Assembly (NCBI GenBank): GCA_964647855.1
Contig: CAZYJW010000002.1
Location: 308,399-372,398, forward strand
DNA length: 64,000 nt
Reading direction: 5' to 3'
From: Candidatus Micrarchaeota archaeon
GTDB lineage: Archaea > Micrarchaeota > Micrarchaeia > Anstonellales > Bilamarchaeaceae
How positions within the stretch are numbered: position 1 is the first letter of the stretch; every line of letters begins with the position of its first letter. Positions 41,001-56,450 of this stretch are shown one piece after another. Position numbers and translations under genes: made by a program. The notes under the pieces are model-generated. The model did no database searches. It was not told where the DNA came from and saw only the letters and a program-made list of their open reading frames with translations.

Positions 41001-41520
41001 TCGCCACGCTCGGCAGGTATTTGTCGTAGTTGAGCTCGGCCGGAAGCACGGCGTCCGAAGCGGTATCGACGCCGTCGGCGTTCGTGGCCTCGGTGTCCAG
41101 ATTGGCGAACTTGACGCACTGCTTGAAGCCCTCGCATTCCACATCGGTCGGGATGCAGTAGGGGCAGTACATCACCTTGAAGTTCAGGCAGGTGGTGTTC
41201 CAGGCGTTGAAGCGGAACGACGCCTTGCCCTCCGCGTCGGTGTAGGTCTTGCGCAGCTCGTTTAGGCCGGTCGGGTTGGAGACCTCGACAAGGACTATAG
41301 TGTCGTGCAGGGGCTGCCGGGGCGGGGACGCGGAGGCGTTCTCGTAGAAGGCGACTATCTCTATGGTCTGGTTCGAGTAGTCGAGGTCGTTTAGCATGAC
41401 GAATATGCCGGTCTGGGGCGCCACGGTGAGCTGTTCGCATGTCGCGCATTCCGGAGGCTCGGCGGAAAGCGAAAGCGGGCAGACGAGCATCAGTGCGAGC
41501 AGTACCGGAAGCGGCCTCAT
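38026..41520 (-). CDS. Large (1164 aa) signal-peptide/TM protein: ~170-aa Cys-containing ectodomain, TM, Gly/Ala/Ser-rich segment, second hydrophobic segment, ~750-aa C-terminal region
   Basis: MRPLPVLLALMLVCPLSLSA signal; TM AICFPLILLFSLLSGALYL; GC3 bias throughout; divergent from paralog operon. Confidence 0.8.
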   Translation of the reverse strand: MRPLPVLLALMLVCPLSLSAEPPECATCEQLTVAPQTGIFVMLNDLDYSNQTIEIVAFYENASASPPRQPLHDTIVLVEVSNPTGLNELRKTYTDAEGKASFRFNAWNTTCLNFKVMYCPYCIPTDVECEGFKQCVKFANLDTEATNADGVDTASDAVLPAELNYDKYLPSVATGPSWCPPPEPLSATPAICFPLILLFSLLSGALYLTGRNPFMGFNIGSMRIGQHVRYQARGRGFSMNFTQVISAVASVAQSAKAGTFSAEGAKKESKAAWGRSAFGLGGLASGTGGIRDTLKRRSDMRAGGAAAAKKGQRGSAGGSSAAQGGASQRMGAGGVSAEATGAMQGTSGRDILGGTSIFDKSMWSASNLYGFGTLLRLATFVALGTTLGRAIDSIIFASSGKSGMEMMVNHLTDHGRTAMELSATINAARGEHSGWMVDRGDGTLVEMRQPPMEPGDTRDENGIIRNAAGEARFIVIAQSNVAGETTPAGERNGMLANREVTITFDREDRVSSLQMNVFINGQAIDVRVTGTPGSPVFETQTSPGQWARMDESDRATFSQAFGAFTSLPMQYQPGMPGAGQLVDQYASTMSGLSMIMQNAQQQIQLAREEQADRINSQLGQDPDSRTAVTSVRYDVAAEALGLALGIPTDEMRAGAPGHTELFDGIERGSSTIGGSDYQRSGYETVALAVHDADSGAGSHGLSSLGSRDGVGALASGSNLSEEHAAVAQAVLPGMLGNMSVRELMTMNQDDLRQAVAAQLAGRNDPATGQPYSPESIDAISRGISPLAPQIRGAATDFHESLSGTDPQLRTRLEGADLTRISALSGAGSLMRDDNIPQLLLTRPESLSAYNMGPGVADAVREYHSLSAMQQATALPSIQTATGPQLDMNSPGAVAAVERLRDATFDYGQASMVSVAREERAFSDDMYVRRDPTTRTEYMATEYGLASRGLDSGIYTHQMDSTFGLSPAPGVVLPASEVPAEIRVIQETARQDNIDRLVREGDYSTARAEIATAVEQFNTAARSARALGDTATARRFEQASESYSAAFGQIDSVERSGGYRPPSPPAGGGTTPPEAPPSGGGATPPVAAPETAQPRAVTIDVGDTAALMGGIRSTASGHSMRRHEDLIEVKEHIEQRMPRDKRPDELYAGGSDTPLTPDHEFRDAT

Positions 41521-41538
41521 GCTAGTAGTATCTTTGGC

Positions 41539-41552
41539 AAATTTATAAATTT
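41539..41552 (-). promoter_or_regulatory. TATA-like box (AAATTTATAAATTT) about 26 nt upstream of ATG 41520 (minus strand)
   Basis: Only AT-rich element on that side of the 102-nt divergent intergenic region. Confidence 0.5.
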
Positions 41553-41592
41553 ACCCATGAAGGGCGGATGCCGGTGTGCGGAACTCCATAAC

Positions 41593-41604
41593 CATTTAAA
41601 TTAG
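41593..41604 (+). promoter_or_regulatory. TATA-like box (CATTTAAATTAG) about 25 nt upstream of ATG 41623
   Basis: Spacing implies a leaderless transcript for the paralog operon. Confidence 0.5.
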
Positions 41605-41622
41605 TAAGCAGGAATTCCCTGC

Positions 41623-42798
41623 ATGCAGGCTTGGCGGGCAGCGCTTACTATAATATTCCTACTCGGAGCCGCGTCTGCCGCCTCGACCGACCTCACCCCG
41701 CTTGTGCCCGCAGTGGCGGTCGTGGTCATGGTGATGCTCGCGATAACCAACATGCTCGCGGTGTCGCTTTCGAATCCGGGCGTCGAGGCGTGGGCGAAGT
41801 CCGAAATCCGGGAGTTCGTGGCTGGCGTAGTGCTGATCGCGCTCGTCATCGGCATGTTCATTGCCTCGGACGGCGTTTCCTTCGCCCTCACTGGCGAGGC
41901 GGACTATGTCGCCAAGTCGCAGGATGTGATAAACGGCTGGGTGGGCAGGCTGATAGCGACATACAAGGACGTAATAGAGGCGGCGCAGAAGATACGCGTG
42001 GCCGCCTCGTACGCCTCCGGCACGAACATCGCGATATGGTTCTTCTCCCTGAGCTACCAGACGTCGCCCCTTTCGGGCGCCGCGCTTTTCCTCGTCCCCC
42101 TGAGCCTCGCCACCCAGGGGCTCACGAACGCCATCTACCTCTGCGAAAGCGTCAAGATGCTGGTCGCCTTCTTCAAGGTGGTGACACCGAAGGTGCTGCT
42201 TCCCATATCGTTCTCAATGCGGCTGATACCCTTCACCAGGAAGACGGGGAACACCCTGATAGCCATATCGCTCGCGACAATCGTCTTCCTGCCGGCCTCG
42301 GTGATTTTCGCCGACTACCTGAACAACGAGATACAGCTTCCGGATGCGCGCATCGACGACCTCGGCGCGCTCGATTCCGACCCCTATCCCATCTACGCCT
42401 TCGGCGCAATCTGCGAGTCCAAGTTCTTCCGCATCCTGTTCTCCATGACCGACCCGCTGTTCGCGCTCATCGTCTGCCTTCCGATAGCATGGATTCCGGG
42501 CGCCTTCCCGGCATGCTTCGACCTGGTCTGGCACGTCGTCTATCCCATAATGAGCATGGTGTTCCAGATAGTCAACGCCATCCTGATGATAACGTGGGAG
42601 GCCGCGGTGAATCCCACATCCTACGGCGAGGACGTCTTCGGCCAGCTCCGGCCCTTCCTCGCGGAGCTGAGCAACCTCGTCATGGTTATTTACCTTGACA
42701 TCGTCTTCATAACGCTGATAACAATCTCCGGCGCGCGGAGCATCTCCGCGGTGATAGGCGGGGACTGGTACATGGCGGGAGTGCAGAGGTTGATATGA
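41623..42798 (+). CDS. Paralog family membrane protein P1 (391 aa)
   Basis: Signal peptide; motifs VEAWAKSEIREF, LLPISFSMRLIPFTRKTGN, C-terminal SAVIGGDWYMAGVQRLI; ATGA overlap with P2. Confidence 0.85.
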   Translation: MQAWRAALTIIFLLGAASAASTDLTPLVPAVAVVVMVMLAITNMLAVSLSNPGVEAWAKSEIREFVAGVVLIALVIGMFIASDGVSFALTGEADYVAKSQDVINGWVGRLIATYKDVIEAAQKIRVAASYASGTNIAIWFFSLSYQTSPLSGAALFLVPLSLATQGLTNAIYLCESVKMLVAFFKVVTPKVLLPISFSMRLIPFTRKTGNTLIAISLATIVFLPASVIFADYLNNEIQLPDARIDDLGALDSDPYPIYAFGAICESKFFRILFSMTDPLFALIVCLPIAWIPGAFPACFDLVWHVVYPIMSMVFQIVNAILMITWEAAVNPTSYGEDVFGQLRPFLAELSNLVMVIYLDIVFITLITISGARSISAVIGGDWYMAGVQRLI

Positions 42799-43775
42799 TG
42801 AGGACGCTCCCCCTCCTTCTGCTTGCTCTCGCGGGCCTCTCCTCCGCAGCCTGCGTCTCGGACGCAACGGCCGTGATAATGTCCGAGCAGGGCATCTTCA
42901 TCGGCGTGGTCATCTCGGTCATGATAGTGGTGATAGCCTTCGCCTACATGTTCGGGACCGCCATGCATTACCCGAACTTCATAGTGTTCGCGAAGGACGA
43001 GGCCTACCACCTCGCGTTCTCTGCCCTCATCCTGGTCTCATTCAGCGGCATCATGGTCTTCTCGTGCCAGATGACCCAGCTCTTCTTCGACGAGACCTTC
43101 AAGAACCTCGGGACAAGCAAGTGCTATTCTGACGGGAAGCTGCCGACCGAGGTCGCGGAATGCTACGTGAACGATGCGAAGAACGACGCCCGCTCGCTCT
43201 CCGAAAGATACATCCAGAAATACATAGACAACATGATGGACTCCACATGGTCCGTCAGCCTGGCGATTCCGCTCTTCACCGCATACACCGCCACGGCGGG
43301 AGCCTACAAGCGCGTGGTGGCCAGCCAGTACAACATGATTTTTTCCACGTTCCTAGTGCCGGCGCTGATGAGCATCAGCATGCAGAAGTTCATGCTCGTC
43401 TTCATCAATGAGAACGTCATACGCTGGATACTCCCCACAGCGCTGCTGCTGCGCTTCTTCCCCCTCACAAGGCACATGGGCAACATATTCATCGCCGTGG
43501 CCATCGCGCTCTACGTGCTCGTCCCGATGCTCTATGCGTTCAACCTTGCCATGTACGACGTCACGTTCAATGACTGCAGCGCATCGGCAGTGGCCGCATG
43601 CGATTTCGTGATTGACGGCGGCTGCAGCCCGCCCCAGAACACCTGCGGCAATCCGGACAGCCTCTGGAACGTGGCGAGGCTCCTGCCGCAGGCGTTCTTC
43701 CTGCCGAACCTTACGATAGCTCTCGTGATAACGTTCCTCGGCTCCATACACAAGGCGTTGAGGGTGATCGGATGA
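42795..43775 (+). CDS. Paralog family membrane protein P2 (326 aa)
   Basis: Signal peptide; FIVFAKDEAYHLA, ILPTALLLRFFPLTRHMGN; ATGA overlap with P3. Confidence 0.85.
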   Translation: MMRTLPLLLLALAGLSSAACVSDATAVIMSEQGIFIGVVISVMIVVIAFAYMFGTAMHYPNFIVFAKDEAYHLAFSALILVSFSGIMVFSCQMTQLFFDETFKNLGTSKCYSDGKLPTEVAECYVNDAKNDARSLSERYIQKYIDNMMDSTWSVSLAIPLFTAYTATAGAYKRVVASQYNMIFSTFLVPALMSISMQKFMLVFINENVIRWILPTALLLRFFPLTRHMGNIFIAVAIALYVLVPMLYAFNLAMYDVTFNDCSASAVAACDFVIDGGCSPPQNTCGNPDSLWNVARLLPQAFFLPNLTIALVITFLGSIHKALRVIG

Positions 43776-45901
43776 ATAAGGCCCTGCTGTTCATTTTCCT
43801 GCTGTGCGGCGCGTTCGCCTACGCCGCCGAGGCGACCGAATCCGAGGAAAGCTTCCAGGAGACCACCTCGGGCTCGAGCGAGGAGCTCTTCCAGGACTGG
43901 CGCCCGCTCTCAATAGCGGCGATAATGACCTCCATCCTGCTGATAGGCATCGCCTACGCAGTCGGCCAGGGGATAGGGATGCCCGAGGTGAAGGCATGGG
44001 CCTCAAACGAGCTCGTGCAGGCCTTCGCGAACGTGGTGATAATAATCTGCCTCATGGCCGCGATAGCCCTCCTGGACGTGCTCGCGGAGGAGATGGTGCA
44101 CGGCAGCGGCCTTGCGATACCCTGCACGGGCGGCCAGAGCTGCCTCGGCGCGGTCGGAGTCCAGTACCTGCAGTCCTACATCGACGCGGCGAGCGACGAC
44201 GCGAAGAGCGTCGCCATAAAGAGCATAGAGGCCGGAGGCTGGGCCGGACGCAGGTTCGGCATCTACTGCACGACCATACTCTGCCTCCAGATAGGCACCA
44301 CCTTCAGCGTGACCGGCTCCTACATTCTAGACCAGGACAGATATTCGCTGATATTCGAGTATTACACCAACCTCCTCGCCTCGCTCGAGGCGCAGAAGTT
44401 CTTCCTCACGAACATCGCGTTCAACATCGGCCCCCTGATGCTCGCGGCGGGCATAGTCGCGCGGTCGTTCTTCTTCACACGCAAGCTCGGCGGCCTCATG
44501 ATAGCGCTCGCGGCGGGCATAATGTTCTTCCTGCCCGGCATGTACGTCTTCAACTGGATAACGCTCGACACCGCCCTCACGGGCGACAAGAACAACGAGG
44601 ACGCAGGCGGCGACCTCTGCCCGCCCGAGTGCGAGACGCCCCACGCCCTTGCGGTCGTGGATGACGGCACGCAGGAGGGCGTCAAGCTCGGCTCCATAAA
44701 GAACGTGTATGACGCCTTCCCCGACTCGGAGGTCCTTATCGCGCAGGGGATAATCGACGGCACAATACCATTCGCATCCCCGGGCGAAGGCGATTATGAG
44801 GACAAGGTCATAACCTCCTGCATGGTCGTTAGCGACGAGGAATGCCCGATGGCGTGCAGGGAACTGCCATACCCCTCGAGCCTCATGCAGTGCATGAACA
44901 TGAGCGCTGACGTGCCGCAGAACTGCGCCAAGCTCCCCGACAAGTGCTGGGTCAGGAGGTTCGCGACCCCGGTGTCGGAGGACAGCATCGAATACGAGCC
45001 GTCGCTCTCAAGCTGCCCGACCGAATGCAAGGTTGTCCCGCCGCTCAAGGGCGACTGCGACACCGGCGACTGCCTGACATCGCGCACCGAGTGCAGGCTC
45101 TACAAGAGGGTGGCGAGCACAGGCGACCCGGACGAGGACTTCGAGTGGTCTCCGAACCCCCCTGACGCCGGGGACGATTCCCAGGCGCGGTGCGAGGATG
45201 CGCAGGACTGCGAGCCGGACTACGACGCCCTCCAGTCGTGCGCATACGTGATTCCGGACACGGGTTCCTGCTCCGAGAAATGCGCCGGATGCCCGGAGTT
45301 CTGCAGGGTGATTACCGAAAACGAGGACAAGCTCTCAAACCAGTGTTTCGATGGGAACGGCTCCGGCAGCCTGCTGTATACATGCAGCCAGTGCCCGGTC
45401 GGGTGCAAAGTCAACGCCACGCACATCGAGGAGGTTGTGGCGGGCATGACCGCCCCGGAGGGCGAGACGCTCCCATGCGACGGATGCGATGCGGAGAAGC
45501 GCATAGTGACATACGGGGAGACCATGCCGGTCGAATATATCTCGGGCTCATGCGACATAAGCACCTGCCCGGTGGAGGACAGGGTCGCGATACCCAGGAA
45601 CTCGTGCGAGCAGTGCCTCTTCAGCGAGGAGTCCGAGATGTACGACCCGCCGATACAGGCCGGATGCGCGGACCTCTGCAAGCCCTCCGACGAGGTGCCC
45701 ATGAAGGGGGCGGACGCCTATACCGGCGTGGGCGGCGAGGGCCTGGTGGGGACCCCGGAGATACAGAACGTTTCCAAGCTGATGCTTCCGGCGTATGTGC
45801 TGCCGCTCTTCGACATAGTTGCGACACTGATATTCATAAAGGGAGTATCGACGATGCTGGGCGGGGACATAGATATCCCGGGAATTTCCAAGGTGTTCTG
45901 A
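43772..45901 (+). CDS. Paralog family membrane protein P3 (709 aa) with ~385-aa Cys-rich ectodomain insertion
   Basis: Signal peptide; VKAWASNELVQAF, IVARSFFFTRKLGG, C-terminal STMLGGDIDIPGISKVF; insertion with 32 Cys (hand count); TGATG overlap with P4. Confidence 0.85.
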   Translation: MNKALLFIFLLCGAFAYAAEATESEESFQETTSGSSEELFQDWRPLSIAAIMTSILLIGIAYAVGQGIGMPEVKAWASNELVQAFANVVIIICLMAAIALLDVLAEEMVHGSGLAIPCTGGQSCLGAVGVQYLQSYIDAASDDAKSVAIKSIEAGGWAGRRFGIYCTTILCLQIGTTFSVTGSYILDQDRYSLIFEYYTNLLASLEAQKFFLTNIAFNIGPLMLAAGIVARSFFFTRKLGGLMIALAAGIMFFLPGMYVFNWITLDTALTGDKNNEDAGGDLCPPECETPHALAVVDDGTQEGVKLGSIKNVYDAFPDSEVLIAQGIIDGTIPFASPGEGDYEDKVITSCMVVSDEECPMACRELPYPSSLMQCMNMSADVPQNCAKLPDKCWVRRFATPVSEDSIEYEPSLSSCPTECKVVPPLKGDCDTGDCLTSRTECRLYKRVASTGDPDEDFEWSPNPPDAGDDSQARCEDAQDCEPDYDALQSCAYVIPDTGSCSEKCAGCPEFCRVITENEDKLSNQCFDGNGSGSLLYTCSQCPVGCKVNATHIEEVVAGMTAPEGETLPCDGCDAEKRIVTYGETMPVEYISGSCDISTCPVEDRVAIPRNSCEQCLFSEESEMYDPPIQAGCADLCKPSDEVPMKGADAYTGVGGEGLVGTPEIQNVSKLMLPAYVLPLFDIVATLIFIKGVSTMLGGDIDIPGISKVF

Positions 45902-46884
45902 TGAAGCCGATTGCCGCCCTCATGCTGATTGCGCTTGCCCCTGCGGCCTTCGCCGCAAGCGGCTGGGAAGGCACCGCGGCGGCCGCGATTATGATATCGG
46001 CGGGCCTGATAGGCGTCCTCTACATGGTAGGGATGGGCTTCGGAGTCAACGAGTTGCAGATTATCGCGAAGGAGGAGTATTATCAGCTTTTCGCGACCGC
46101 CATACTGATAGCCCTGCTCTTCGGCGGGAACAGCCTGATGGACGGCCTCTCGAACGCCTTCGCGGACGGCGGCAGCGCCAACCTGCAGGCGCACGGCATG
46201 GCGATAATCGACGAGACGCTAAGCGGCGGCCCCGACAGCATGACTTCGATATACGACAAGGTAGCCGACCTCGACACGCAGGTGGCGAGCGAGGGCTCGA
46301 AGACGCTCTCATGCAGCATCGTGCAGATAGGCTACACGGTTAGCGCGTGCGGCGGATACTCCATGGTGAACACGCCGCTTTCCATGGCGGGCGGGATTGT
46401 CGGGTTCGCCATCGGAGAGCTGCATTCGATGAAGAGGCTGCTCGCGATTTCGACCGGGTATGCCATGAACCTCCTGCTCCCGATGGGGATACTCCTGCGG
46501 ACCTTCAAGCTCACGAGGGGAGCGGGCGGCTTCCTGATGGCGACCGCGGTCTCGATGCACATCCTGCTCCCGGCGGGCATGGTGTTCAACGACATGCTCG
46601 CGGACACTTTCCTTGCGGATGCCGGCGCCGCGGCATATACCGGCGGCATAGGCTCGATCGTGCCGGAATGCGACCCGGACGCCGTGGTGTTCGACAGCGA
46701 GAGCGGGGCGACCGAGCTCCTCGACAGCCTGCTCGGCGACCTCCGGAAGGTGGTGTTCGGCGTGCTGATACGCGGGACCCTCGGGCCGGTGCTTTCGCTG
46801 CTCATGATGATTGCCGGAATACGCGCGCTAAGCTCGCTCGGAGGCGCCGAGGTCGACGTTAGCGCGCTCGGGAGGTTCGTCTGA
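45901..46884 (+). CDS. Paralog family membrane protein P4 (327 aa)
   Basis: Start trimmed from ORF-track 45190 (upstream part is Arg/Gly-rich off-frame overlap of P3); LQIIAKEEYYQLF, LLPMGILLRTFKLTRGAGG, SSLGGAEVDVSALGRFV. Confidence 0.85.
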   Translation: MKPIAALMLIALAPAAFAASGWEGTAAAAIMISAGLIGVLYMVGMGFGVNELQIIAKEEYYQLFATAILIALLFGGNSLMDGLSNAFADGGSANLQAHGMAIIDETLSGGPDSMTSIYDKVADLDTQVASEGSKTLSCSIVQIGYTVSACGGYSMVNTPLSMAGGIVGFAIGELHSMKRLLAISTGYAMNLLLPMGILLRTFKLTRGAGGFLMATAVSMHILLPAGMVFNDMLADTFLADAGAAAYTGGIGSIVPECDPDAVVFDSESGATELLDSLLGDLRKVVFGVLIRGTLGPVLSLLMMIAGIRALSSLGGAEVDVSALGRFV

Positions 46885-47906
46885 TGGCCGACACGTGCAG
46901 CCTCACCGGATTCGATTCCATAATAGACAACACGGTGCTTCCGCTCGCGCTTGTCGCGAGCTTCACGACCGCCATGGTGATAGCCATCACGTACGTGGTC
47001 AGCCAGGCGATATCGAACCCGAAGCTGAGCCTCTGGGCCAAGACCGAGGCCGTCCAGCTCGCGGTTTCTGCGGGAACGGTTTTCATGCTGATAACCGTCA
47101 TGAACACCTTCTGCACGGTTAAGATGGACGAGGTGGCGTCCCTTTTCGGGCTCACCTCGGCTCCTCTCAGCATCTATGACGCCGCCAACGAGTACCTGGT
47201 CCGCGCGGGCGAGTTCTCCATCAAGGCCCTCCAGGTCAGCAGGTACCACCTCGAGGCCTACAACGTCATGAGCGCCCTCAACGCATTCGAATGCGAGTTC
47301 GGCGGCGGGATAGGGTGCCTTTTCGGCTACTCGGGCACGAACGTCCAGCCCATGGGCGGCTACGGCGCGCACCAGGCGGCGATGAACATATTCTACAACT
47401 CCGCGATAATGTCCGTGATGTCCGCGCTCAATTTCCTCTTCATCCTCAAGTTCGTGTACAAGGGATTCGTGCTGATGTTCCTGCCCCTTGGAATATTCAT
47501 GCGGGCGGTGCCGTATATGAGGACCTTCGGCGGGCTCCTGATAGCCCTCACCCTCGCCTTCCTCATAGTATACCCGCTCCTGCTCTCGGTATTCTACCTC
47601 ATGTCGGACGTCCTGCTTGAGCAGCCGGCCGGTGCGGGCAATTTCATGGACGAGAGCGTCTTCGACGTGGACGACGCCGCAGGGGAGAGCGTCGAGGCAG
47701 CCGTGGCCGGCACGGACGCGGTCTGGGAGAACTACTTCCCGAACGACGACATGCCGCACGTGGCGATTGCCTTCGCGGCATATGCCTTCATAGCCGCGGT
47801 ATTCCTGCCCACGGCCGCCCTGCTCGGGACTATTGGGAGCATCGTCTACCTGACGCGGCTCTACGGCGAGGAGATAGATTTAAGCAGGATAGTTCAAATG
47901 GTGTGA
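46884..47906 (+). CDS. Paralog family membrane protein P5 (340 aa)
   Basis: LSLWAKTEAVQLA, FLPLGIFMRAVPYMRTFGG, LYGEEIDLSRIVQMV; TGATG overlap with P4 stop. Confidence 0.85.
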   Translation: MADTCSLTGFDSIIDNTVLPLALVASFTTAMVIAITYVVSQAISNPKLSLWAKTEAVQLAVSAGTVFMLITVMNTFCTVKMDEVASLFGLTSAPLSIYDAANEYLVRAGEFSIKALQVSRYHLEAYNVMSALNAFECEFGGGIGCLFGYSGTNVQPMGGYGAHQAAMNIFYNSAIMSVMSALNFLFILKFVYKGFVLMFLPLGIFMRAVPYMRTFGGLLIALTLAFLIVYPLLLSVFYLMSDVLLEQPAGAGNFMDESVFDVDDAAGESVEAAVAGTDAVWENYFPNDDMPHVAIAFAAYAFIAAVFLPTAALLGTIGSIVYLTRLYGEEIDLSRIVQMV

Positions 47907-47909
47907 ATT

Positions 47910-48965
47910 ATGGATTTCTTGCTGCCCCTCCTCTCGATAACGGACCTGACGATAAAGAACGACGTCACGTGGCTCAACCACTGGGCGCCGCTCTCGGCGC
48001 TCGCTGTGGCGACGTCGCTCGTCATCCACACCGCCTTCCTCATGGTGGCGAAGGCACTCTCGATAAAGGAGTTCGAGAACTACGCGCTTTCGGAAATCCT
48101 CCAGGCGCTTGCGACGGCGGTGATGATCGGCTTCCTGCTCGTGATGGTGAACAGCGCGCTCGAGCTCGCCCAGACCTACATCGCTGGCGACGTAGTATGC
48201 AACGGAAAGGCGCTCCACATAGGGCTCGGGGACGAGGCGGACTCCGTGATGGACGAGGCCTTCGACGCCATCCGCTGCAGGCTGCAGGAGAAGGCCGACG
48301 TCGTGGCGCAGATACAGCGCGACGTCACCACGAGCACCGAGACCTTCAACTACTTCAACCTCATGAACATCCAGGCCAGCCTGCTCGGAATCACCTTCCT
48401 CAAGGGCGAAGGGTTCAGCGACCTCTACAAGGAGACCGAGACTGTGAGGATAACCAACAACCTCGCCACGGTCATACTGATAGGCCTAAACGCCCAGTCC
48501 TCGGTGCTCCAGTACCTCAAGTACAACGCCCTCACGACGTTCATACCGCTGGGGCTGTTCCTCCGGAGCTTCTTCTTCACAAGGGGCGTGGGGGCGCTGT
48601 TCCTGTCCTTCGGCATCGGCATGTATTTCATATTCCCGGTCTTCTACGTCCTCCTCGACCCCAACTTCATCCCGGCCCCGCCCGTCGCCGAGGGGACCGG
48701 CCAGGCCGACATCCCCCAGCCCTACTGCTACGCCACGATGTCGAGCACGGTCTCGGTCATACAGACCCTCGAGGCCGGGGGGCTCGGCACCACCGCGGTG
48801 CTGAAGAAGGAGAACATCAGGGACGAGCTTTCCAAGTCGTATGTGGAGCTGATGCTCCATCCCCTCGTGGCGTTCTTCCTCACGATGACATTCATAAGGT
48901 ACATGATGACCGTCCTGGGCTCGGACTCGTACGAGCTCGTGCGCATGGTCAGCAAAGTGGTTTGA
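47910..48965 (+). CDS. Paralog family membrane protein P6 (351 aa)
   Basis: FENYALSEILQAL, FIPLGLFLRSFFFTRGVGA, VLGSDSYELVRMVSKVV; next gene starts at the nucleotide after its stop. Confidence 0.85.
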   Translation: MDFLLPLLSITDLTIKNDVTWLNHWAPLSALAVATSLVIHTAFLMVAKALSIKEFENYALSEILQALATAVMIGFLLVMVNSALELAQTYIAGDVVCNGKALHIGLGDEADSVMDEAFDAIRCRLQEKADVVAQIQRDVTTSTETFNYFNLMNIQASLLGITFLKGEGFSDLYKETETVRITNNLATVILIGLNAQSSVLQYLKYNALTTFIPLGLFLRSFFFTRGVGALFLSFGIGMYFIFPVFYVLLDPNFIPAPPVAEGTGQADIPQPYCYATMSSTVSVIQTLEAGGLGTTAVLKKENIRDELSKSYVELMLHPLVAFFLTMTFIRYMMTVLGSDSYELVRMVSKVV

Positions 48966-51900
48966 ATGAACAGACAACTCGCCGCCCTGGCAATTTTGGC
49001 CGTCATCCTTTCGGGCTGCCTCCAGCCCGCGACGAAGCTCGGATGCTGCCTCAAGGAGAACGCGACCGACAGGGACGGCTGCGTGCTCTACAACGACAGC
49101 TCCGACCAGATACTCGACTGGACCGGGAAGACGAACCTCGAGGCGGACGGCCAGAAGTGCAATGTCACCGGCAACTACTGCAACGTCACGTTCGACGACG
49201 ACCAGCCGGGCTACCTGATACCGGTATGCACCGAGGCGGACATTCTCTCGTGCAGGCAGCCGGACTGCCTCGCGATGGTCTGCGGCGACTTCAAGTTCAA
49301 GCCGCCGGTCGCCCCGGGCATCACCGCCGAGGGCGACGACGTGAAGACCGACGTGCCGGCGGACACCCAGGAGGAGTCCGCCATGCAGTTCTTCCACGCC
49401 CAGTGCAGGTTCCTCCCGATGGACGGCAAGCTCAAGAAGATAATGAAGAGCTCGAAGTCCACCATAAACGTTTTCAGGTGGGGCGTGGGCAACTCATTCG
49501 ACGAATACGAGCAGTACAGGTACTATTTCCCGATGTCCGACAAGTTCTGCGCGGTGAATCCGCCCCGCGAGAACGAGCTTCGCGTGGACAGGTACATGAA
49601 CTACCTCAATCCGACCACGAAGGCCGCCTGGGACCCCATCGCGGGCATAACATCGAACTGCATCGAGGACGACGCCAGCGCTCCGCCCCCTTTCAGCTAC
49701 GACGAAAGCGGCAGGGGTGTCACGACCGGCACGTTCACGGGAATCGGGGGCGGCGTCAGCTACAGCTATTTCGGGGTGACGAAGGACAAGAGCAACTACA
49801 AGTTCGCGCACTGGGGGCGCGTGGATTATGGCGAGGTCGAAGAGTCGTATTTCACCGGGTATTCCCTCGCTTCGCCCTTCTTCAGCTCCTTCAGCGTCTA
49901 CAAGAAGATAGACAACTCATACTACAAGAAATGGCTGTCCATTACGTCCGCCTCGACCATCTACGGCCTCAGCACGACGCTCACGAACACCACCCGCGCG
50001 CCTTTCGAGTGCGACCTTTCGAGCATAGACTGCTATTCGGGCATCTGCTCCACCACCACCTACAACCGCGTGGTGATGCTCACGCCACCCAATTCCAACG
50101 GCGTGCAGGAGGAGGTCGTGACTGACTGCGAGAGCTACACGGACGAGAACCTCATAACCAAGCTCGTCTGCGCGCCGACAAAGAGCGTCACGATAACCGG
50201 GCCGAACACGGCGCCAACGAGGACGTATGCCAAGATAGACGCGAGGGTCGTCCATGTGGACGGACTGAGCAGGTTCGAGAGCGTGAACGCGGCCTGCGGG
50301 ATATTCGATAGCCAGCACCTCGACAAGTTCGTGGACTGGGAATACATGGGGGGCTGGGGATACGGCGCTCCGTGGGACGACGTGCAGTGCCCGAACGTCA
50401 TGTCGAGCAACTTCTTCACCGCTGCCCAGGCCAAGTTCGACGTGGGGCAGATAACCAACACCGCGACGGGCTACATGACATACTTCAACGGGACCGACGG
50501 GCTCTGGTACAACCAGTTCCAGGAGGCGTCCGCGGGCCCGCCGGCCGGAGGGGCGCTGTTCTTCGGATACACCGACCCCGAGGCTTCATACGGAGGCAAG
50601 ACGGTGATAGGCTACGCCCTCGCTACGCAGGACGAGGTCGACGACCTTCTTGTCGTGAAGAACTGCGAGATGGTCTCCGGCGTGGATTATGAGATTGTTT
50701 CGGTGCCAGACGACCTCACCCAGTGGGGCGCGCTCAAGAACGCCTTCACGGGATATTTCAGGCAGAGGTATTCGGGCATGAAGGCGGTAAGCACCGGCGA
50801 CAGCTGCGGCGCGGTGTCCTGCACGCTCTATGAGGACGCGCCCCAGATGGCGTGCGCCTACTTCCCTGACTTCTTCTTCGCCGGTCTTCCGTGGGTGGTC
50901 ACGATGGACAAGCAGGCCCACCCGAACTACTGGGGGGGGAACCCGACACAGGGCATCCTTCTTAACAACGAGATACAGATGGGCACGAGGAAGATCAACA
51001 GGTTCAGCGAGAACATGGTGATAACCGGCGGGGCGGACACATGCACCCTCAGGAGGATGCACTCCGGATGGTATTCCACCGCCTCCAGGGAATCCGACGA
51101 CACCAACTACTACATCTGGCTCACCTACCAGAAGCCCACCTACGACCTCCTCTACAGCAAGAAAATCGCCCTGTTTTACGACGACGGGGACGGCATGATA
51201 GGCAAATGCGCGATAGACGGCTCCACGGGCCTGCCCCAGGTCAGGACGTTCGGCTGGTGCGAGCCGTGCACGACGTCCACTATCGCCTACCAGTTCATAT
51301 CGACGCGCGGTGAGGGGCTCTACATGCCGGCGGCGATAGCGGAGATAGAGGGCGGCGGAAACGCTGATGTGACCGCGCTCGAGAAGAGGGTATGCACGGC
51401 AACCGGGGGCGAGATACAGTGCGCCAACAACCTGATAACTTCGGCAAACGATTTTAGCATCGGGGACGGGGAGGTGCCGCTGAATCCCAGGACCTACCCC
51501 GAGGCTTCGGTCCTCAAGGAGAGGCTGGGCAACTACATGAAATCGGGCGTCCTGCCGGTGCTGGACCTGAGCGTCGATGACAACTGGGTGGCGGACGAGG
51601 AGACCGGGAACGTCTGGGAACTGCTCTTCGGGGACGACGGCGGGGACGGCTCCGCGCCCGCCGAGTACGACTTCCAGCGCCTTGTCGGCAACATGGGCGC
51701 GGCGGTGGTCATCGTGGAGCGGGTTGACAACGAGACTGACGCGGAGGCCAAGGCGCAGAACATCAGCGACAGGAGCTCCGCGGTGAGGAGCCGCTGCTAC
51801 GGCTGCCTGACCGCCTTCCATGTCAATTCGCCGGAGAGCAATACCAGCTTCCACGACACGGCCCATGCCGTGTTCTCCACGAACTTCGCGAGCAAGTTCA

Positions 51901-52955
51901 CGGTCGACATGGTCACCTTCGACTATCCCATATCGGACCATACCGGCATGCTGCCCGCGATGGGAAGCGCAATCCTCGCGCAGGACCCCTCCGCCAACCT
52001 CACGTACAACTACAGCCAGATAATCGCGGATGACATAGCAAGCTATTCCAGGGGCATCCTCAAGGCCGAGAACAAGCCCACGATGCTCGTCGGGCTCAAT
52101 CTCGACAGCGACGACTCTGTGATGACCGCGTCCAGGTACAAGGCGCTCTTCGACGCCATCGCGCTAAACCAGGATGATTACGTGAAGGCGGGCCTGATAG
52201 GCATAATATACTCTCCGGCCAGGCAGCAGACGATACTGACATTCGAGATGGACGAGGTCGGAATCGTCGACATGGAATTCGAAGATGACGACATCTTCGG
52301 CCTGAATGGCTATGGCGTCAAGAACGACAAGTTCTGCGCGCTCCAGGGCGCGATGCAGAAGCTCACCGCCGCCCCTCCCGTGGCTGTCTATGTGCGCAGC
52401 AACGCGGTGAACGACAGCGAGTGCATACCCTGCCTCAGCCTCGAGAAGTCCCAGGGCCAGTGCGACGCAGACGCCCTGATGTGCGACAACGGAATCCACT
52501 GCACCCCTCCCGGCGGCCTCAGCCTGTCCGATATCGAGGGCGCCTTCAGGTGCCAGCCCGAAACGATTGTGGACGACCCCGCGGGCGAGCGCTGCACCCT
52601 GTGCAAGGACATCCCCGGCACATACACCTGCACGTTCAGGTACGCGAACGGCTCCATAGAGACGCAGAGCGGGAGCATGGCGGTTCTCGAATCGGACGCA
52701 TACCTCGACATCCTTGCGGGCATCGAGCGCCCCTACAAGTGCTGCCTGGCCGACAGCTACGACCAGAGGCATTCCTATGTAAAGAGGTCCTCGGAGTCCC
52801 TCGTCAACGTGCCCATAGCCTTCTCCAAGACCGGGGACGAGGAGGTCGACTGCGGCATGAGCAGCAGCATCGGCGCGATTACCGAGGCCCAGGAGTTCTG
52901 CAACGTCGAAATCCCGATAAGGAATTACGATGTGACATGCACGATAAGTGGTTGA
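48966..52955 (+). CDS. Giant (1329 aa) Cys-rich, aromatic-rich lipoprotein-like exoprotein
   Basis: Signal peptide with lipobox-like AVILSGC; many Cys and N-x-S/T sequons; no further TM; GC3 bias; no family recognised. Confidence 0.85.
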   Translation: MNRQLAALAILAVILSGCLQPATKLGCCLKENATDRDGCVLYNDSSDQILDWTGKTNLEADGQKCNVTGNYCNVTFDDDQPGYLIPVCTEADILSCRQPDCLAMVCGDFKFKPPVAPGITAEGDDVKTDVPADTQEESAMQFFHAQCRFLPMDGKLKKIMKSSKSTINVFRWGVGNSFDEYEQYRYYFPMSDKFCAVNPPRENELRVDRYMNYLNPTTKAAWDPIAGITSNCIEDDASAPPPFSYDESGRGVTTGTFTGIGGGVSYSYFGVTKDKSNYKFAHWGRVDYGEVEESYFTGYSLASPFFSSFSVYKKIDNSYYKKWLSITSASTIYGLSTTLTNTTRAPFECDLSSIDCYSGICSTTTYNRVVMLTPPNSNGVQEEVVTDCESYTDENLITKLVCAPTKSVTITGPNTAPTRTYAKIDARVVHVDGLSRFESVNAACGIFDSQHLDKFVDWEYMGGWGYGAPWDDVQCPNVMSSNFFTAAQAKFDVGQITNTATGYMTYFNGTDGLWYNQFQEASAGPPAGGALFFGYTDPEASYGGKTVIGYALATQDEVDDLLVVKNCEMVSGVDYEIVSVPDDLTQWGALKNAFTGYFRQRYSGMKAVSTGDSCGAVSCTLYEDAPQMACAYFPDFFFAGLPWVVTMDKQAHPNYWGGNPTQGILLNNEIQMGTRKINRFSENMVITGGADTCTLRRMHSGWYSTASRESDDTNYYIWLTYQKPTYDLLYSKKIALFYDDGDGMIGKCAIDGSTGLPQVRTFGWCEPCTTSTIAYQFISTRGEGLYMPAAIAEIEGGGNADVTALEKRVCTATGGEIQCANNLITSANDFSIGDGEVPLNPRTYPEASVLKERLGNYMKSGVLPVLDLSVDDNWVADEETGNVWELLFGDDGGDGSAPAEYDFQRLVGNMGAAVVIVERVDNETDAEAKAQNISDRSSAVRSRCYGCLTAFHVNSPESNTSFHDTAHAVFSTNFASKFTVDMVTFDYPISDHTGMLPAMGSAILAQDPSANLTYNYSQIIADDIASYSRGILKAENKPTMLVGLNLDSDDSVMTASRYKALFDAIALNQDDYVKAGLIGIIYSPARQQTILTFEMDEVGIVDMEFEDDDIFGLNGYGVKNDKFCALQGAMQKLTAAPPVAVYVRSNAVNDSECIPCLSLEKSQGQCDADALMCDNGIHCTPPGGLSLSDIEGAFRCQPETIVDDPAGERCTLCKDIPGTYTCTFRYANGSIETQSGSMAVLESDAYLDILAGIERPYKCCLADSYDQRHSYVKRSSESLVNVPIAFSKTGDEEVDCGMSSSIGAITEAQEFCNVEIPIRNYDVTCTISG

Positions 52956-52956
52956 C

Positions 52957-53301
52957 ATGGGGCTTGGCGACCTGATTGGGAACATGCTCAAGGGCAAATC
53001 CGGCGGGGCGTCCGGCAGGAAGGGGCAGGCCCAGGCGTGCCCGAACTGCGGGGAGAAGGTCAACCTGAGCATGGAGCGCTGCCCCAAATGCGGCGTGCGC
53101 ATAAAAAGCATGTTCAGGCGCAAATGCCCCAGGTGCCAGGGCCTTGTCGAGCTGGACGCGAAGAAGTGCCCCAAGTGCTTCTACAGCTTCGAGGCGGAAT
53201 TGGAAAGGGCTAATAAAACCTTTTATGTATGTCCAATATGCGGGTTCAAGATGGAGGCGTTGCTGACGCGCTGCCCCGCGTGCAACACCCGATTCATGTG
53301 A
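52957..53301 (+). CDS. Triple zinc-ribbon protein (114 aa)
   Basis: CPNC..CPKC / CPRC..CPKC / CPIC..CPAC, three CxxC-N(10-14)-CxxC units; ATG is 2 nt after the giant ORF stop. Confidence 0.7.
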   Translation: MGLGDLIGNMLKGKSGGASGRKGQAQACPNCGEKVNLSMERCPKCGVRIKSMFRRKCPRCQGLVELDAKKCPKCFYSFEAELERANKTFYVCPICGFKMEALLTRCPACNTRFM

Positions 53302-53305
53302 GCAT

Positions 53306-53875
53306 ATGACTTCAGAATCCTTCAAGCAGGCCGAGAAAAAGCCCGAAATCGAGGCTCCGAAAAAGAAGTTCATCCATCTCCTCGACGAGGAGGAGGTCGA
53401 GATAAAGAAGCTCGACTCGGAGGACATCGAGGACTGCGTCAAGGTCATGCGCAAGTGCGCCTTCGACGTCACGGAGGTCGAGGTCGGGAACATCGTCGCC
53501 TACGGCAAGAGCTTCGGGGCGACCGTGAACAGGATGCTAGTCGGCGTTGGGCTCGCGTGGCCCGCTAAGCTCGACCTCGAGAGCAAGAGGATAACGAGCG
53601 GCGAGGCGAACGCGCTCTATATGGAGGACCCCGCGGTCCTGCTCGCCTACGAGGGCAGGGGCGTGCGCCGCATCCTGCTAGCCGAGAGGGAGAAGGAGGC
53701 CGTCCGCTCCAGCCTAAGGTATTCCATAGGATACCTCTACGAGGACATACCCAAGGGCGACATCGCGAGCTACATCACTGAGGCGGGAAGCGCCCTCGAG
53801 AAGCTGTATCTGTCCGAGGACTACCAGTTCTTCCGCACGGAGAAGGGAATCCTCGCCTTCAAGAAAATCTCCTAG
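53306..53875 (+). CDS. GNAT-like acetyltransferase-fold protein (189 aa), tentative
   Basis: LAYEGRGVRRILLAE resembles GNAT motif A (Q/R-x-x-G-x-G/A); last gene of the coupled operon. Confidence 0.4.
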   Translation: MTSESFKQAEKKPEIEAPKKKFIHLLDEEEVEIKKLDSEDIEDCVKVMRKCAFDVTEVEVGNIVAYGKSFGATVNRMLVGVGLAWPAKLDLESKRITSGEANALYMEDPAVLLAYEGRGVRRILLAEREKEAVRSSLRYSIGYLYEDIPKGDIASYITEAGSALEKLYLSEDYQFFRTEKGILAFKKIS

Positions 53876-54539
53876 GGCGCCTCTTCCCACCGGGCCTTGG
53901 CTTCTTTTTCGCAGCCCCCTTCATTGCGGAGGGGGCTTTCCGGGCCTTCGCACTGCGCGATGCGGAATCCGCCTTGGACCGCCCGGGTTTCCGCGGGAAG
54001 CGTGCCTGCCTGGCCATAGAGGATGACGGCTTGTCCCAGTTGGGGAGCCGGAGCTCCTTGGCGAGGAGGCGCACCTCGGCCTTCGTGAGGTTGCTTTCTA
54101 GGAGGGGGCTGCGGACTCCGGCGGCCTTCGCCATTAGGTAGCTGTGCCCGCGCTCGCAGGCGTCGTCAGTATGGGACCCGTCGAGGACGTTCTTGAGCTG
54201 CATCCGCATCGCCACGGACTTCATAGTGCTATAGACATTCGAGCCCCGGACCGGCCGGGCCTCCCTGGGCCGCGGGGCCTCGATTACCAGGTGCCGGACG
54301 CCTATTATCTTCGCGACGCGCTTCGCCACCGAAAGCTCGCTGCGGGGGTAATTGTCAGAGAGCGTGGTCACGGCCACGGCCTTTTCGCCGAGCTCGTCCC
54401 TGCAGATCCGCATCAGGAAACTGCTGTCGACGCCGCCAGAGAACGCCACAAGGGCGCTGTCGAGCTTCCTTATCCTTTCCCTGAGCGTGGATAGTTTCCG
54501 CTCGAGCCGCCTGTCCATGGGTTTTGATTTGACGCGCAT
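53859..54539 (-). CDS. PP-loop ATP pyrophosphatase (LarE/TIGR00268-like) with Lys/Arg-rich C-terminal tail
   Basis: ALVAFSGGVDSSFL PP-loop; DGSHTDD; ~65-aa basic tail; 3' end overlaps the convergent 53306 gene by 17 nt. Confidence 0.65.
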   Translation of the reverse strand: MRVKSKPMDRRLERKLSTLRERIRKLDSALVAFSGGVDSSFLMRICRDELGEKAVAVTTLSDNYPRSELSVAKRVAKIIGVRHLVIEAPRPREARPVRGSNVYSTMKSVAMRMQLKNVLDGSHTDDACERGHSYLMAKAAGVRSPLLESNLTKAEVRLLAKELRLPNWDKPSSSMARQARFPRKPGRSKADSASRSAKARKAPSAMKGAAKKKPRPGGKRRPRRFS

Positions 54540-54671
54540 GATTATAACCTTGCCTGGGGGATTTCCGGGATTGCAGCATTACTGTTATAAAAAATGTTTA
54601 AAAAAGAATCGTTTGCCGCCCGCAGGCGTGCGCATGGGAGAATATATAACATTTCCCGGGGGAATGCTGCC

Positions 54672-56450
54672 ATGAGGCTTCCCGCAATCCTACTGCTCGC
54701 CATGGCGCTCTGCGCCGCGGCCTGCACGGGCTCGATATCGCAGAGCGTCCCGGCGGTCGTAGGCGACGGCGGAAACCTCGTCAACGTGAGCATGGCGCTC
54801 GGGGAGGGCGACGGGACTGTGTTCGTGAGCGTGGCGCCCGCGACAGGCGTCGCCACGCAGGAGTCGATTTACGACGCGGTCGCCTACGCCTGGATGCTCG
54901 CGGGCAGGGATGGGCCGTGCGACGTCATGGTCAGTTTCGCCGGCAACCCCTCCACATCGTACATCGACGGACCGAGCGCCGGCGCGGCGCTCACCGTGAT
55001 GGCGTATTCGCTCCTCGAGAACCGGACGATGAGGAACGACACGATAATAACGGGGACCATAGAGCCCGACGGAACCATCGGGCCGGTCGGAGGCCTCTAC
55101 GAGAAGGCCCGGGGCGCCTCGGACGCGGGGGCCGCGTATTTCATCACCCCCGTGGAGACGTTCTATGAGATCCTCCTTCTCCGCGAAATCGGGGAATCGC
55201 ACGGAATCAGAATCGTCCAGGCGGCGAGCGTGGAGGACGTCATCCGGTTCATGCTGGATGGCAGCGAGATACCCCAGTCGCAGTTCGAAATACGCGAGAG
55301 GGGAGTGCCGGACGTCCCGCAGTATTACGACCCCGGGCTTGCCGGGTTCGGCCCCGTGGCCCAGCGCATGATAAGCCTCGAAAGGGGGCTTGCGGACGCC
55401 GTGGGGGCGGATGGCAACGAAACGCTCGCGATAAAATCCTTCTACTATTCGGAAGCCGCCAGGCAGGAGGCCATGCTCGGACTGGGCTACGCGTTCAGCG
55501 CGGCCAACGAGGCGTTCCTAAACTATATCGACCTGCTCACGATAGAAGCCGTGGGGAAGGGGGAATTGGACCTTCCCCGGGCCAAGGGGGGCGCCGGAAT
55601 ATGCCTGGGAAACGTGCGAAGGCCGGCGATGACGGACCTGAATTGGGAGTGGGTGGCAGGCGCGGACCAGAGGCTCGGCTGGGCGCAGGAGAAGCTGGAC
55701 AACACCGAAACCGAAGGCGAGATGCTCGAGGACGAGAGGATATACGCGTTCAACCAACTCATGTACGCAAGGGCATGGTGCGAGGTGGCAGGCGCGCTGG
55801 CTGCCGGGGCGCCTGAGGGGGGCAGGGAAATCAACGAGAGCGCCTGGGAGCCGTTCGCAAGGGAGAGGATAGAGGGGGCGAGGGCGCTCGGGGAGCTCGA
55901 CGAGGACTACACGGCGCGCCTCAATATCGCCCAGGCAAGGTATTCCGCGGGCCGCTACGCGGCGGCGGTTTTCGACGCCACCTATGTGATAGAGACATCC
56001 GGGGACGAGCCTCCCCCCGGCGATGCGAACGTTTCGGAGCTGGTGGGCGAAAGCCGCTCCTCGCTCTGGGGGAAGGTCTACCAGTCGCACGCCGCGTTCC
56101 TGAATGCCCAGAACCTCACTTCGGCTGCCTACGAGACCGCCCGCTTCGCCCGGGCCCTCGACGACGCCACGCTGCGCATGGTTGACGAGGGGGAATATGC
56201 CGATGGGGGCGGTGAGGATGAGCCGCTTGCGGAAGGCAGGTCGCTGGACCCGGACTGGCCGGGGCAGGCGGGATGGTGGCCCGTTGCATTGGCCGCATGC
56301 GCATCGATGTTTTTATTCCTTGCCCTGCTATTATTACTCACAAGGCGAAAACATGGAAATGACCGCACGGGACCTCTCAAGGCTGATAGAGCTGAAGAAA
56401 AAGAGGGCGGAGCTCGAGTTCCAGGAAAGGGTGCTCGGCGCAAAGGCTGA
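54672..56450 (+). CDS. Secreted/membrane-anchored Lon-like S16 serine peptidase domain protein (592 aa)
   Basis: Signal peptide with LCAAAC; YIDGPSAGAALTV...ITGTIEPDGTIGPVGGLYEKARGA (Lon_C pattern); C-terminal TM VALAACASMFLFLALLLLL. Confidence 0.7.
   Translation: MRLPAILLLAMALCAAACTGSISQSVPAVVGDGGNLVNVSMALGEGDGTVFVSVAPATGVATQESIYDAVAYAWMLAGRDGPCDVMVSFAGNPSTSYIDGPSAGAALTVMAYSLLENRTMRNDTIITGTIEPDGTIGPVGGLYEKARGASDAGAAYFITPVETFYEILLLREIGESHGIRIVQAASVEDVIRFMLDGSEIPQSQFEIRERGVPDVPQYYDPGLAGFGPVAQRMISLERGLADAVGADGNETLAIKSFYYSEAARQEAMLGLGYAFSAANEAFLNYIDLLTIEAVGKGELDLPRAKGGAGICLGNVRRPAMTDLNWEWVAGADQRLGWAQEKLDNTETEGEMLEDERIYAFNQLMYARAWCEVAGALAAGAPEGGREINESAWEPFARERIEGARALGELDEDYTARLNIAQARYSAGRYAAAVFDATYVIETSGDEPPPGDANVSELVGESRSSLWGKVYQSHAAFLNAQNLTSAAYETARFARALDDATLRMVDEGEYADGGGEDEPLAEGRSLDPDWPGQAGWWPVALAACASMFLFLALLLLLTRRKHGNDRTGPLKADRAEEKEGGARVPGKGARRKG

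Follow-up and report, generated by a model that had tools for sequence, protein, structure and literature searches.

The present analysis concerns a nine-gene operon and its divergent upstream neighbour in the chromosome of a Candidatus Micrarchaeota archaeon, contained in a window of 64,000 nucleotides (assembly GCA_964647855.1, contig CAZYJW010000002.1, positions 308,399 to 372,398); "the window" refers throughout to this whole stretch, and coordinates are positions within it. Open reading frame (ORF) calling on the plus strand identified nine co-directional ORFs between 41623 and 53875, here termed P1 to P9, with products of 391, 326, 709, 327, 340, 351, 1329, 117 (or 114) and 189 amino acids (aa). 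The genes are packed as tightly as the first-pass annotation of this DNA had described, with overlaps or gaps of at most 4 nt at nearly every border: the successive junctions from P1 to P9 are -4, -4, -1, -1, +3 and 0 nt, then +1 if P8 begins at the ATG at 52957 or -8 if it begins at the GTG at 52948, and finally +4 nt. The first six products, P1 (41623–42798), P2 (42795–43775), P3 (43772–45901), P4 (45901–46884), P5 (46884–47906) and P6 (47910–48965), are paralogous polytopic membrane proteins, and they are followed by P7 (48966–52955), a secreted or lipid-anchored, disulfide-rich protein, by P8 (52948 or 52957 to 53301), a small basic cytoplasmic protein, and by P9 (53306–53875), also cytoplasmic. 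The cluster had originally been drawn as P1 to P9, which stands, with one omission: a divergently transcribed gene for a 1164-aa type-I membrane protein on the minus strand (38026–41520), here P0up, is also a conserved member, as judged from the adjacency of its orthologs to the array in other genomes.

Paralogy among the first six products was confirmed at several levels. All are linked by all-against-all BLASTP at 30–71 bits, the best pairs being P3–P4 (71 bits), P1–P4 (58) and P3–P6 (52), and in a MAFFT alignment they match over their full length except for a Cys-rich insertion of about 400 residues in P3. With 96 homologs added, five residues (E59, R200, R206, G209 and P224 in P4 numbering) were invariant across the 102 family members. 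The three motifs first read as common to all six are indeed present, save that the C-terminal LGG[DE]x[DY] tail is absent in P2 and loose in P4. Signal-peptide-like N-termini, also part of the earlier description, occur in four of the six (P1–P4) and not in P5 or P6. Hydropathy and AlphaFold together give a topology that begins with the signal peptide of P1–P4, transmembrane helix (TM) 1, a short loop bearing an AK.E motif, TM2 and an extracytoplasmic helical or hairpin region of about 100 residues, and continues with TM3, a loop bearing an R..TR..G motif, TM4, a variable extracytoplasmic region, TM5 and a short tail, i.e. five hydrophobic helices after the signal peptide, with about six hydrophobic helices counted in P1. 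Given a cleaved signal peptide, both of the invariant charged loops would be cytoplasmic and the Cys-rich parts would face outward. An AlphaFold2 model of P4 (predicted local distance difference test, pLDDT, 87; predicted TM-score, pTM, 0.79) was all-helical apart from a beta-hairpin, with five hydrophobic helices and an extracytoplasmic helical bundle.

Within this common plan P3 is the extended member and P2 stands out by its 8 Cys. The P3 insertion, about 400 aa long, is acidic, contains 38 Cys, lies between hydrophobic helices 4 and 5 in the variable extracytoplasmic region and is predicted to be extracellular. Orthologs of P3 range from 640 to 1580 aa and occupy the third position of the array without exception. 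Some family members elsewhere carry long N-terminal extensions, for example P0212 (933 aa, Ca. Anstonella stagnisolia) and P0231 (1295 aa); the extension of P0212 consists of CARDB domains, so that paralogs of this type can be fused to extracellular adhesion-type domains.

The largest product of the operon, P7, bears out the original description as Cys-rich and lipoprotein-like, with a lipobox-like LSGC N-terminus and 47 Cys, more than 40 of them invariant in 57 orthologs. Conservation is concentrated in the N-terminal (residues ~1–390) and C-terminal (~1020–1329) parts and the middle is variable. An AlphaFold2 model of residues 22–1221 (pLDDT 80.8, pTM 0.81) contains at ~860–1130 a (beta/alpha)8 TIM barrel resembling those of glycoside hydrolases (GH). 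This barrel had 116 structural matches in PDB at E≤1e-3, led by GH53, GH5, GH10 and GH1, with the top matches at probability 1.0 and TM-scores (target) of 0.44–0.50, which places it in the barrel fold of clan GH-A. Of the catalytic residues of that clan, neither the Asn-Glu pair that ends strand 4 nor the Glu that ends strand 7 was seen as an invariant feature of the 57 orthologs, a provisional result with strands assigned by DSSP only; the predicted strands carry D/Y, G/Y and KFC as conserved residues. On this predicted fold P7 may be a divergent glycosidase or a glycan-binding pseudo-enzyme. We also considered P7 as a surface-layer (S-layer) protein and rejected it, the Micrarchaeota S-layer protein belonging to another family (TIGR01564/01567) and being nearly free of sulfur-containing residues (bioRxiv 10.1101/2021.04.28.441871).

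P0up has a signal peptide, a Cys-containing ectodomain of ~165 aa, a single TM at 190–208 and a long, variable, low-complexity C-terminal part, and its conservation is restricted to the N-terminal ~350 aa, i.e. ectodomain, TM and juxtamembrane segment. P8 matches the Pfam double zinc ribbon DZR (2.2e-12) and its 12 Cys form three zinc ribbons, as had been recognized at first sight. P9 is the most conserved product of the cluster. Its description as GNAT-like proved to be weakly supported: 7 of 24 orthologs gave sub-threshold matches to Acetyltransf_1 (best E 0.0034) and 4 of 24 to Acetyltransf_9, and P9 itself had no match in Pfam or PDB, so that nothing for this family reached threshold.

P0up and P1 are separated by 102 bp (41521–41622) that would function as a divergent promoter region. 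The first-pass annotation had placed a single TATA-like box here, and there are in fact two: one at 41594–41603, 20–29 nt before the ATG of P1, and another at 41539–41553, ~27 nt before the start of P0up. Both are the longest A/T runs within 37–57.5 kb of DNA that is 62% GC, and judging by their spacing they would serve the two divergent genes. A scan of the window for bacterial promoters and terminators gave counts at or below shuffled expectation, and tRNA and Rfam scans of the window were empty. Long ORFs on the opposite strand, such as 46332–47759, are the usual shadow ORFs of GC-rich DNA.

The paralogs had been put forward as an unrecognized family, and library searches agree. P1–P7, P9 and P0up had no match in Pfam, NCBIfam, PHROG or PDB sequences; a Pfam scan of the 102 family members found no recurrent family; and PDB sequence searches with the six-paralog profile, the 102-sequence profile, P7, P0up, P9, a P9 profile and a profile of the pilin-like proteins described below returned nothing significant. 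The family is large. A word-indexed search with the six-paralog alignment retrieved 103 proteins, all "hypothetical" and every named one from Candidatus Micrarchaeota. The profile hidden Markov model (HMM) search suggested in the first-pass annotation, run against 1.84 billion cluster representatives at 50% identity, retrieved 2915 proteins at E≤1e-3 and 2137 at E≤1e-10; the best 150 of the 2915 were inspected, and those looked up were all Micrarchaeota (Anstonella and Anstonellaceae). Scanning one genome per GTDB species yielded 80 loci, all assigned to Micrarchaeota, Micrarchaeia or their families, by a single narrow peptide pattern whose use leaves absence outside the phylum not established by that scan.

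Conservation of gene order, which the same annotation had proposed as a test, was strong. At least six paralog genes were present in 63 of 81 non-redundant Micrarchaeota loci, most of the others being cut by contig ends, and in 50 loci the best-hit order was exactly 1-2-3-4-5-6. P7 was present in 61 of the 81 loci; P0up orthologs adjoined the array in 46, of which 26 have the gene upstream in divergent orientation and 20 have it after P7 in the same direction; and P8 and P9 were found downstream in 26 and divergent upstream in 8. In three distant genomes every paralog had a one-to-one ortholog in the same order at 30–50% identity, together with orthologs of P0up, P7 (32–34% identity), P8 (67%, adjoining the cluster in both arrangements) and P9 (72–73%, e.g. 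in loci L001 and L003). Because one-to-one order is conserved across loci, the six-fold duplication is ancient; all copies have been retained and the accessory genes remain attached through rearrangements, a pattern characteristic of a multi-subunit complex whose subunits are fixed and cannot replace one another. With all six paralogs in strict one-to-one orthology, a six-membered hetero-oligomeric platform, linked to a giant secreted protein, is a reasonable inference, much as had been proposed from the window alone. Four metagenome-assembled genomes (MAGs) carry two complete or near-complete clusters on different contigs (L008/L009, L030/L032, L011/L034 and L028/L033), which could represent duplication, strain mixtures or two functional variants. 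Locus L003 (Ca. Bilamarchaeum) has a 53-aa ORF (12060–12221) between the orthologs of P5 and P6 for which no equivalent was called in the window.

Absence of an ATPase gene from the operon, noted at the outset, is correct for the operon as found in the window. An ATPase gene does follow the most divergent arrays, at loci L065, L067–L069, L071, L074 and L075, the last taken from the completed Ca. Fermentimicrarchaeum limneticum genome. These arrays keep six tandem paralogs, positions 2–6 still best-match P2–P6, and P7, P0up, P8 and P9 were undetected. Upstream of these arrays are 2–3 proteins of 115–123 aa in which a signal peptide is followed by two hydrophobic helices joined by a basic loop. 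All 12 such proteins match Pfam T4SS_pilin (PF18895, best 2.4e-4) and 2 of the 12 match TrbC/VirB2 (PF04956, 1e-4), in every case below the gathering cut-off, and none has a PDB sequence match. The pilin-like proteins of L067–L075 (e.g. L069 5439–5801, 5886–6233 and 6334–6702) share an invariant Cys near the mature start and another at the extreme C-terminus, which suggests a disulfide or other head-to-tail constraint reminiscent of cyclised T-pilins.

Downstream, at gaps of 0–10 nt, the same arrays continue into two 274-aa membrane proteins and a 508-aa ATPase, and then a 99-aa protein, a coiled-coil protein and a 793-aa membrane protein. Pfam matches of the ATPase are DUF87/HerA, AAA_10, P-loop_TraG and TrwB; its best NCBIfam matches are CedD (1e-19 to 1e-21), CedB and VirB4-like families, ahead of HerA, and in PDB it aligns over the greatest length with 4ag5, the C-terminal domain of VirB4. 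The scores, 70–77 bits to CedD and 67–77 bits to CedB, are far below the equivalog cut-offs of 600–700 bits. The ATPase occurs phylum-wide at 60–95% identity across Micrarchaeota (1173 matches, named CedB or VirB4 by some depositors), and it belongs to a five-gene module comprising a 270-aa protein with two TM helices, the CedB/VirB4-like ATPase, a ~98-aa protein, a coiled-coil or winged-helix-turn-helix-like protein of ~250 aa and a ~860-aa membrane protein, conserved at 230–790 bits (L086 9109–15791; L087 9180–15488; L069 12986–20185). Module proteins other than the ATPase are uncharacterised. Genomes with the window-type cluster carry this module elsewhere, for example at L086, 230 kb from the cluster L081 on the same contig. 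The window does contain a canonical HerA helicase with HAS barrel and DUF87 (59603–61117, minus strand, E 1e-30), which was considered as the missing ATPase and rejected because it shows only 38 bits to a CedB-like ATPase that is otherwise 60–95% conserved.

These linked genes invite comparison with DNA import in Sulfolobales (Ced) and Thermoproteales (Ted), in which CedA or TedA is VirB6-like, CedA1 or TedC is a VirB2-like pilin and CedB or TedB is a VirB4-like ATPase (PMC9905601). The first-pass annotation had not recognized the system as Ced, Ted or any other described type and had treated the tandem VirB6 paralogs of the Rickettsiales type IV secretion system (T4SS) as mere analogy. Setting the system apart in this way is not supported: in a sister lineage the array lies directly between VirB2/T4SS_pilin-like genes and a CedB/CedD/VirB4-like ATPase module. 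The polytopic-subunit gene directly follows the pilin gene in tedC-tedA and cedA1-cedA (PMC9905601), and in the fused Micrarchaeota loci a two-helix pilin gene with signal peptide stands immediately upstream of the polytopic genes in the same way, the array thus sitting in the position of tedA or cedA. The Micrarchaeota cluster is likewise chromosomal, would likewise be a domesticated T4SS derivative in archaea, has no relaxase, and is linked to an ATPase whose best NCBIfam matches are CedD and CedB. A relation of the N-terminus to the pilin has been reported by Beltran et al. for CedA/CedA1 and VirB6/VirB2 (PMC9905601), and the paralog N-terminus may likewise resemble a pilin, the comparison with CedA and TedA being with their published description: by hhalign, the pilin-like profile aligned with the paralog TM1-loop-TM2 over 50 columns with a score of 27.2 (P 0.001; probability 21%, in a range of 10–21%), compared with 8–22 for controls made up of three membrane families with no relation to these, one profile reversed and 20 with their columns shuffled. 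When the pilin HMM was run over all ORFs of all loci, the best non-pilin matches were the paralogs.

Differences from Ced and Ted are equally clear. Six distinct paralogs in fixed order replace the single CedA or TedA, with five hydrophobic helices rather than 6–7; most Micrarchaeota arrays are apart from the ATPase module and coupled instead to P7, P0up and the zinc-ribbon and GNAT-like proteins; the ATPase falls far short of the CedB/CedD equivalogs; and no pilin was found in window-type genomes. Components of Ced and Ted themselves have no recognisable sequence similarity between the two systems (PMC9905601). With VirB6/TrbL, of which TrwI of R388 is an example, the paralogs share a polytopic helical build, about five hydrophobic helices and some helices projecting outside the membrane. 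The large hydrophilic insertion of P3 recalls extended VirB6 proteins, five-helix topology and an extended member together mirroring VirB6 (PMC12857230), and the tandem paralog array is as in Rickettsiales. The Micrarchaeota cluster differs in lacking counterparts of VirB5, VirB8 and VirB10 and in its host, an archaeon with a single membrane and an S-layer.

Foldseek of the P4 model against PDB placed TrwI/VirB6 (8rtd_L and 8rt9_F) at ranks 3 and 5 with probabilities of 0.85 and 0.63, the former at E 0.075 and TM-scores of 0.25–0.29, non-significant matches that are nonetheless the highest in probability among natural proteins and are exceeded by a designed helical maquette alone (6z0c, 0.87–0.91); nothing was found at E≤1e-3. 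A VirB6-type context, i.e. a polytopic protein of 4–7 helices beside a VirB2-type pilin and a VirB4-type ATPase, was found only in the arrays of L065–L075 and not in the window. Taken together, the best-supported reading is that the paralogs occupy the position of VirB6/CedA and work likewise, and that the operon and the P0up gene constitute the membrane and surface module of a chromosomally fixed, Micrarchaeota-specific, conjugation-like (T4SS/Ced/Ted-like) contact apparatus. We give this reading a probability of roughly one half.

Several observations weigh against it. Membership of the VirB6 family is not demonstrated: the structural matches of P4 to TrwI have E values of 0.075–0.13 and TM-scores of 0.23–0.29, Pfam TrbL/VirB6 (PF04610) matched 0 of 102 family members at E<1, and hhalign of the family with a VirB6 alignment of 8 MPF_T sequences (TrwI, A. 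tumefaciens VirB6 and six further plasmid VirB6 proteins) gave a probability of 0.2–0.3%. VirB6 of R388 is a homopentamer capped by VirB5, as opposed to six different subunits here. Neither a pilin nor a VirB4-like ATPase adjoins the cluster in the window or in the 64 loci closest to it, and no pilin-like ORFs were found in the window or in loci and genomes of its type. Fusion was seen in one related group of lineages and is effectively one event. The real counterpart of VirB6 or VirB3 could be the membrane protein of 274 aa encoded next to the ATPase; tried as VirB6 by hhalign, it was negative. Finally P7, in which canonical catalytic residues are not evident, might not be an enzyme.

An alternative is that the paralogs form a stand-alone envelope platform that only exports, anchors or displays P7, and perhaps P0up with it, for adhesion or contact, with no tie to a T4SS/Ced-like ATPase or pilus. 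This would account for the window and some 60 loci being self-contained (P0up, P1–P6, P7, P8 and P9) with no ATPase or pilin nearby, for the co-occurrence of P7 with the array in three quarters of loci, and for the lack of a sequence-profile link to VirB6. It does not account for the most divergent arrays, which keep six paralogs in operon fusion with pilin-like and VirB4-like genes and are devoid of detectable P7, P0up, P8 and P9, so that serving P7 is not the only role of the paralogs. Moreover P7 has its own Sec/lipobox-type signal, which makes a dedicated exporter unnecessary. We regard this explanation as possible, with a chance of being right well short of even. Less probable still, and in our view doubtful, is a role in envelope-glycan or cell-surface biogenesis, with the paralogs as polymerase, flippase or scaffold and P7 processing glycans of the symbiont's own surface layer. 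The GH-like barrel of P7 would fit, as would the genes for glycosyltransferases (PMT_2, GT4) and GH57 that occur close to the ATPase module and in fused loci, and a DsbA-like gene within the window, but the paralog fold is unlike that of any known flippase, polymerase or transporter in PDB, no Pfam transporter or polymerase family is matched, canonical catalytic residues are not evident in P7, and the pilin-like and VirB4/Ced-like neighbours point to a T4SS-type machine.

That the cluster is an integrated conjugative or mobile element or a recent lineage-specific expansion with no core cellular role, as might be supposed from the usual mobility of T4SS-like genes and from the two cluster copies in some MAGs, is already largely refuted and very improbable: its flanks are housekeeping genes syntenic in distant genomes, library and tRNA scans of the window found no integrase, relaxase or tRNA, GC content is the same as in the surroundings with no compositional break, and orthologs track the phylum in ~80 species-level genomes. 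The syntenic flanks comprise genes for ScpB, an adenylate-kinase-like protein, adenylosuccinate synthetase, ELP3, exosome subunits and SBDS, and the window, an ordinary piece of chromosome, also encodes RtcA, LonB, TldD and HerA. Immediately downstream of the cluster are a PP-loop (QueC-like) protein (53859–54539, minus strand) and a Lon_C-domain membrane protein (54594–56450, plus strand); the same pair follows the cluster in L001 and L003, either as conserved synteny or as extra cluster members. Beside HerA lie a 300-aa ORF upstream of it that may be NurA (61154–62056, minus strand) and an overlapping 712-aa ORF with no family match that is probably a shadow ORF (58728–60866, minus strand). 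The DsbA/thioredoxin-like protein of 362 aa (26836–27924, minus strand) could provide disulfides for the Cys-rich ectodomains of P3 and P7. At the window start an ORF of at least 3046 aa (3–9143, plus strand) runs off the edge; its sole Pfam match is a calcineurin-like phosphoesterase domain, and its product may be another giant surface or contact protein.

Under the favoured reading of a conjugation-like contact apparatus, each paralog would be indispensable, in constant order, and would stand where the polytopic VirB6/CedA/TedA subunit sits. Six non-redundant paralogs argue for a hetero-oligomer and not for a VirB6-style homo-oligomer, and most likely one copy of each would assemble into a pseudo-six-fold ring in the cytoplasmic membrane. 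Such a hetero-hexameric ring would fit a VirB4-type ATPase that is itself hexameric, which the pentamer formed by VirB6 in R388 does not (PMC9259494). An extracytoplasmic stalk or collar would be built from the long helices and hairpins of all the paralogs and from the Cys-rich P3 insertion, and the cytoplasmic face with its invariant Glu and Arg would contact the ATPase module or P8 and P9. P7 and P0up would dock on the outer helical bundle of the ring and on the P3 insertion, binding or opening the glycan-rich envelope of the partner, and the predicted barrel of P7 would in this respect be functionally reminiscent of T4SS wall hydrolases. Energy and any pilus would come from the separately encoded, highly conserved ATPase module and, in some lineages, from VirB2-like pilins polymerised on the ring. 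The outcome would be contact-dependent exchange between obligate symbionts and hosts, with DNA, proteins or metabolites as cargo. A bolder version, which we consider unlikely, is that P7, P0up and a VirB6-derived pseudo-six-fold ring jointly make up, on the DPANN side, the conduit or docking organelle that links cytoplasm to host, driven by the CedB-like ATPase. Cryo-electron tomography of a cultivated relative has revealed within the DPANN envelope a barrel-like structure of 21 nm, unidentified and involved in docking (PMC11329633), possibly this platform, and any link between that structure and the cluster is speculation.

Two further systems of small symbionts are relevant. Patescibacteria (the candidate phyla radiation, CPR) have a chromosomal T4SS with VirB4, VirB6 and VirB2 pilin arrays that is essential for epibiotic growth (PMC12102498). 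Both it and the Micrarchaeota system occur in ultra-small obligate episymbionts, are chromosomal and without relaxase, are or would be T4SS-like, include arrays of genes for pilins or pilin-like proteins matching PF18895, and are conserved phylum-wide; the CPR system differs in being bacterial rather than archaeal, in being recognisably MPF_FATA-like by sequence, and in its published description, which includes neither a six-paralog array nor a giant protein like P7 (PMC12102498). With this precedent, the Micrarchaeota apparatus may by analogy be essential for the symbiotic lifestyle, as is suggested by how strongly the ATPase is conserved and by a location in the chromosomal core. Giant proteins of the nanohaloarchaeal SPEARE type carry a VirB4/TraG-like ATPase domain and are proposed to act on the host (PMC10266531). 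In both cases a DPANN archaeon would couple giant surface proteins to T4SS-type ATPases and direct them at its host, with the difference that P7 and P0up have no ATPase domain or Ig-repeat array and that no polytopic paralog array is described for SPEARE loci.

Our search of the literature on DPANN or Micrarchaeota together with VirB6, VirB4, CedB or the paralogs found no description of this cluster or of a T4SS/Ced-like system in Micrarchaeota. The paralogs are an undescribed protein family that comprises no fewer than 2900 clusters at 50% identity and is contained in neither Pfam nor NCBIfam, and their six-paralog architecture is unprecedented and would be T4SS/Ced-like in kind. The finding bears on how DPANN archaea attach to their hosts and take up material from them, and would provide the first identified molecular components of a Micrarchaeota contact apparatus. 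The present cluster is conserved gene for gene across the phylum in housekeeping surroundings and is linked by context to a conserved VirB4/CedB-like ATPase and to VirB2-like pilins, and this combination of conservation and genome context therefore supplies a testable parts list, ten proteins here and five in the ATPase module. If the reading is correct, it would extend the T4SS/Ced family into DPANN archaea, would provide a parallel to the T4SS essential for epibiosis in Patescibacteria, and would be the first case of a VirB6 position filled by six fixed paralogs, with a bearing on the symmetry mismatch between VirB6 and VirB4. Should the ring or docking-organelle version also hold, the cluster would represent a new architectural class of T4SS-derived machine, hetero-hexameric rather than homo-pentameric and essential for symbiosis.

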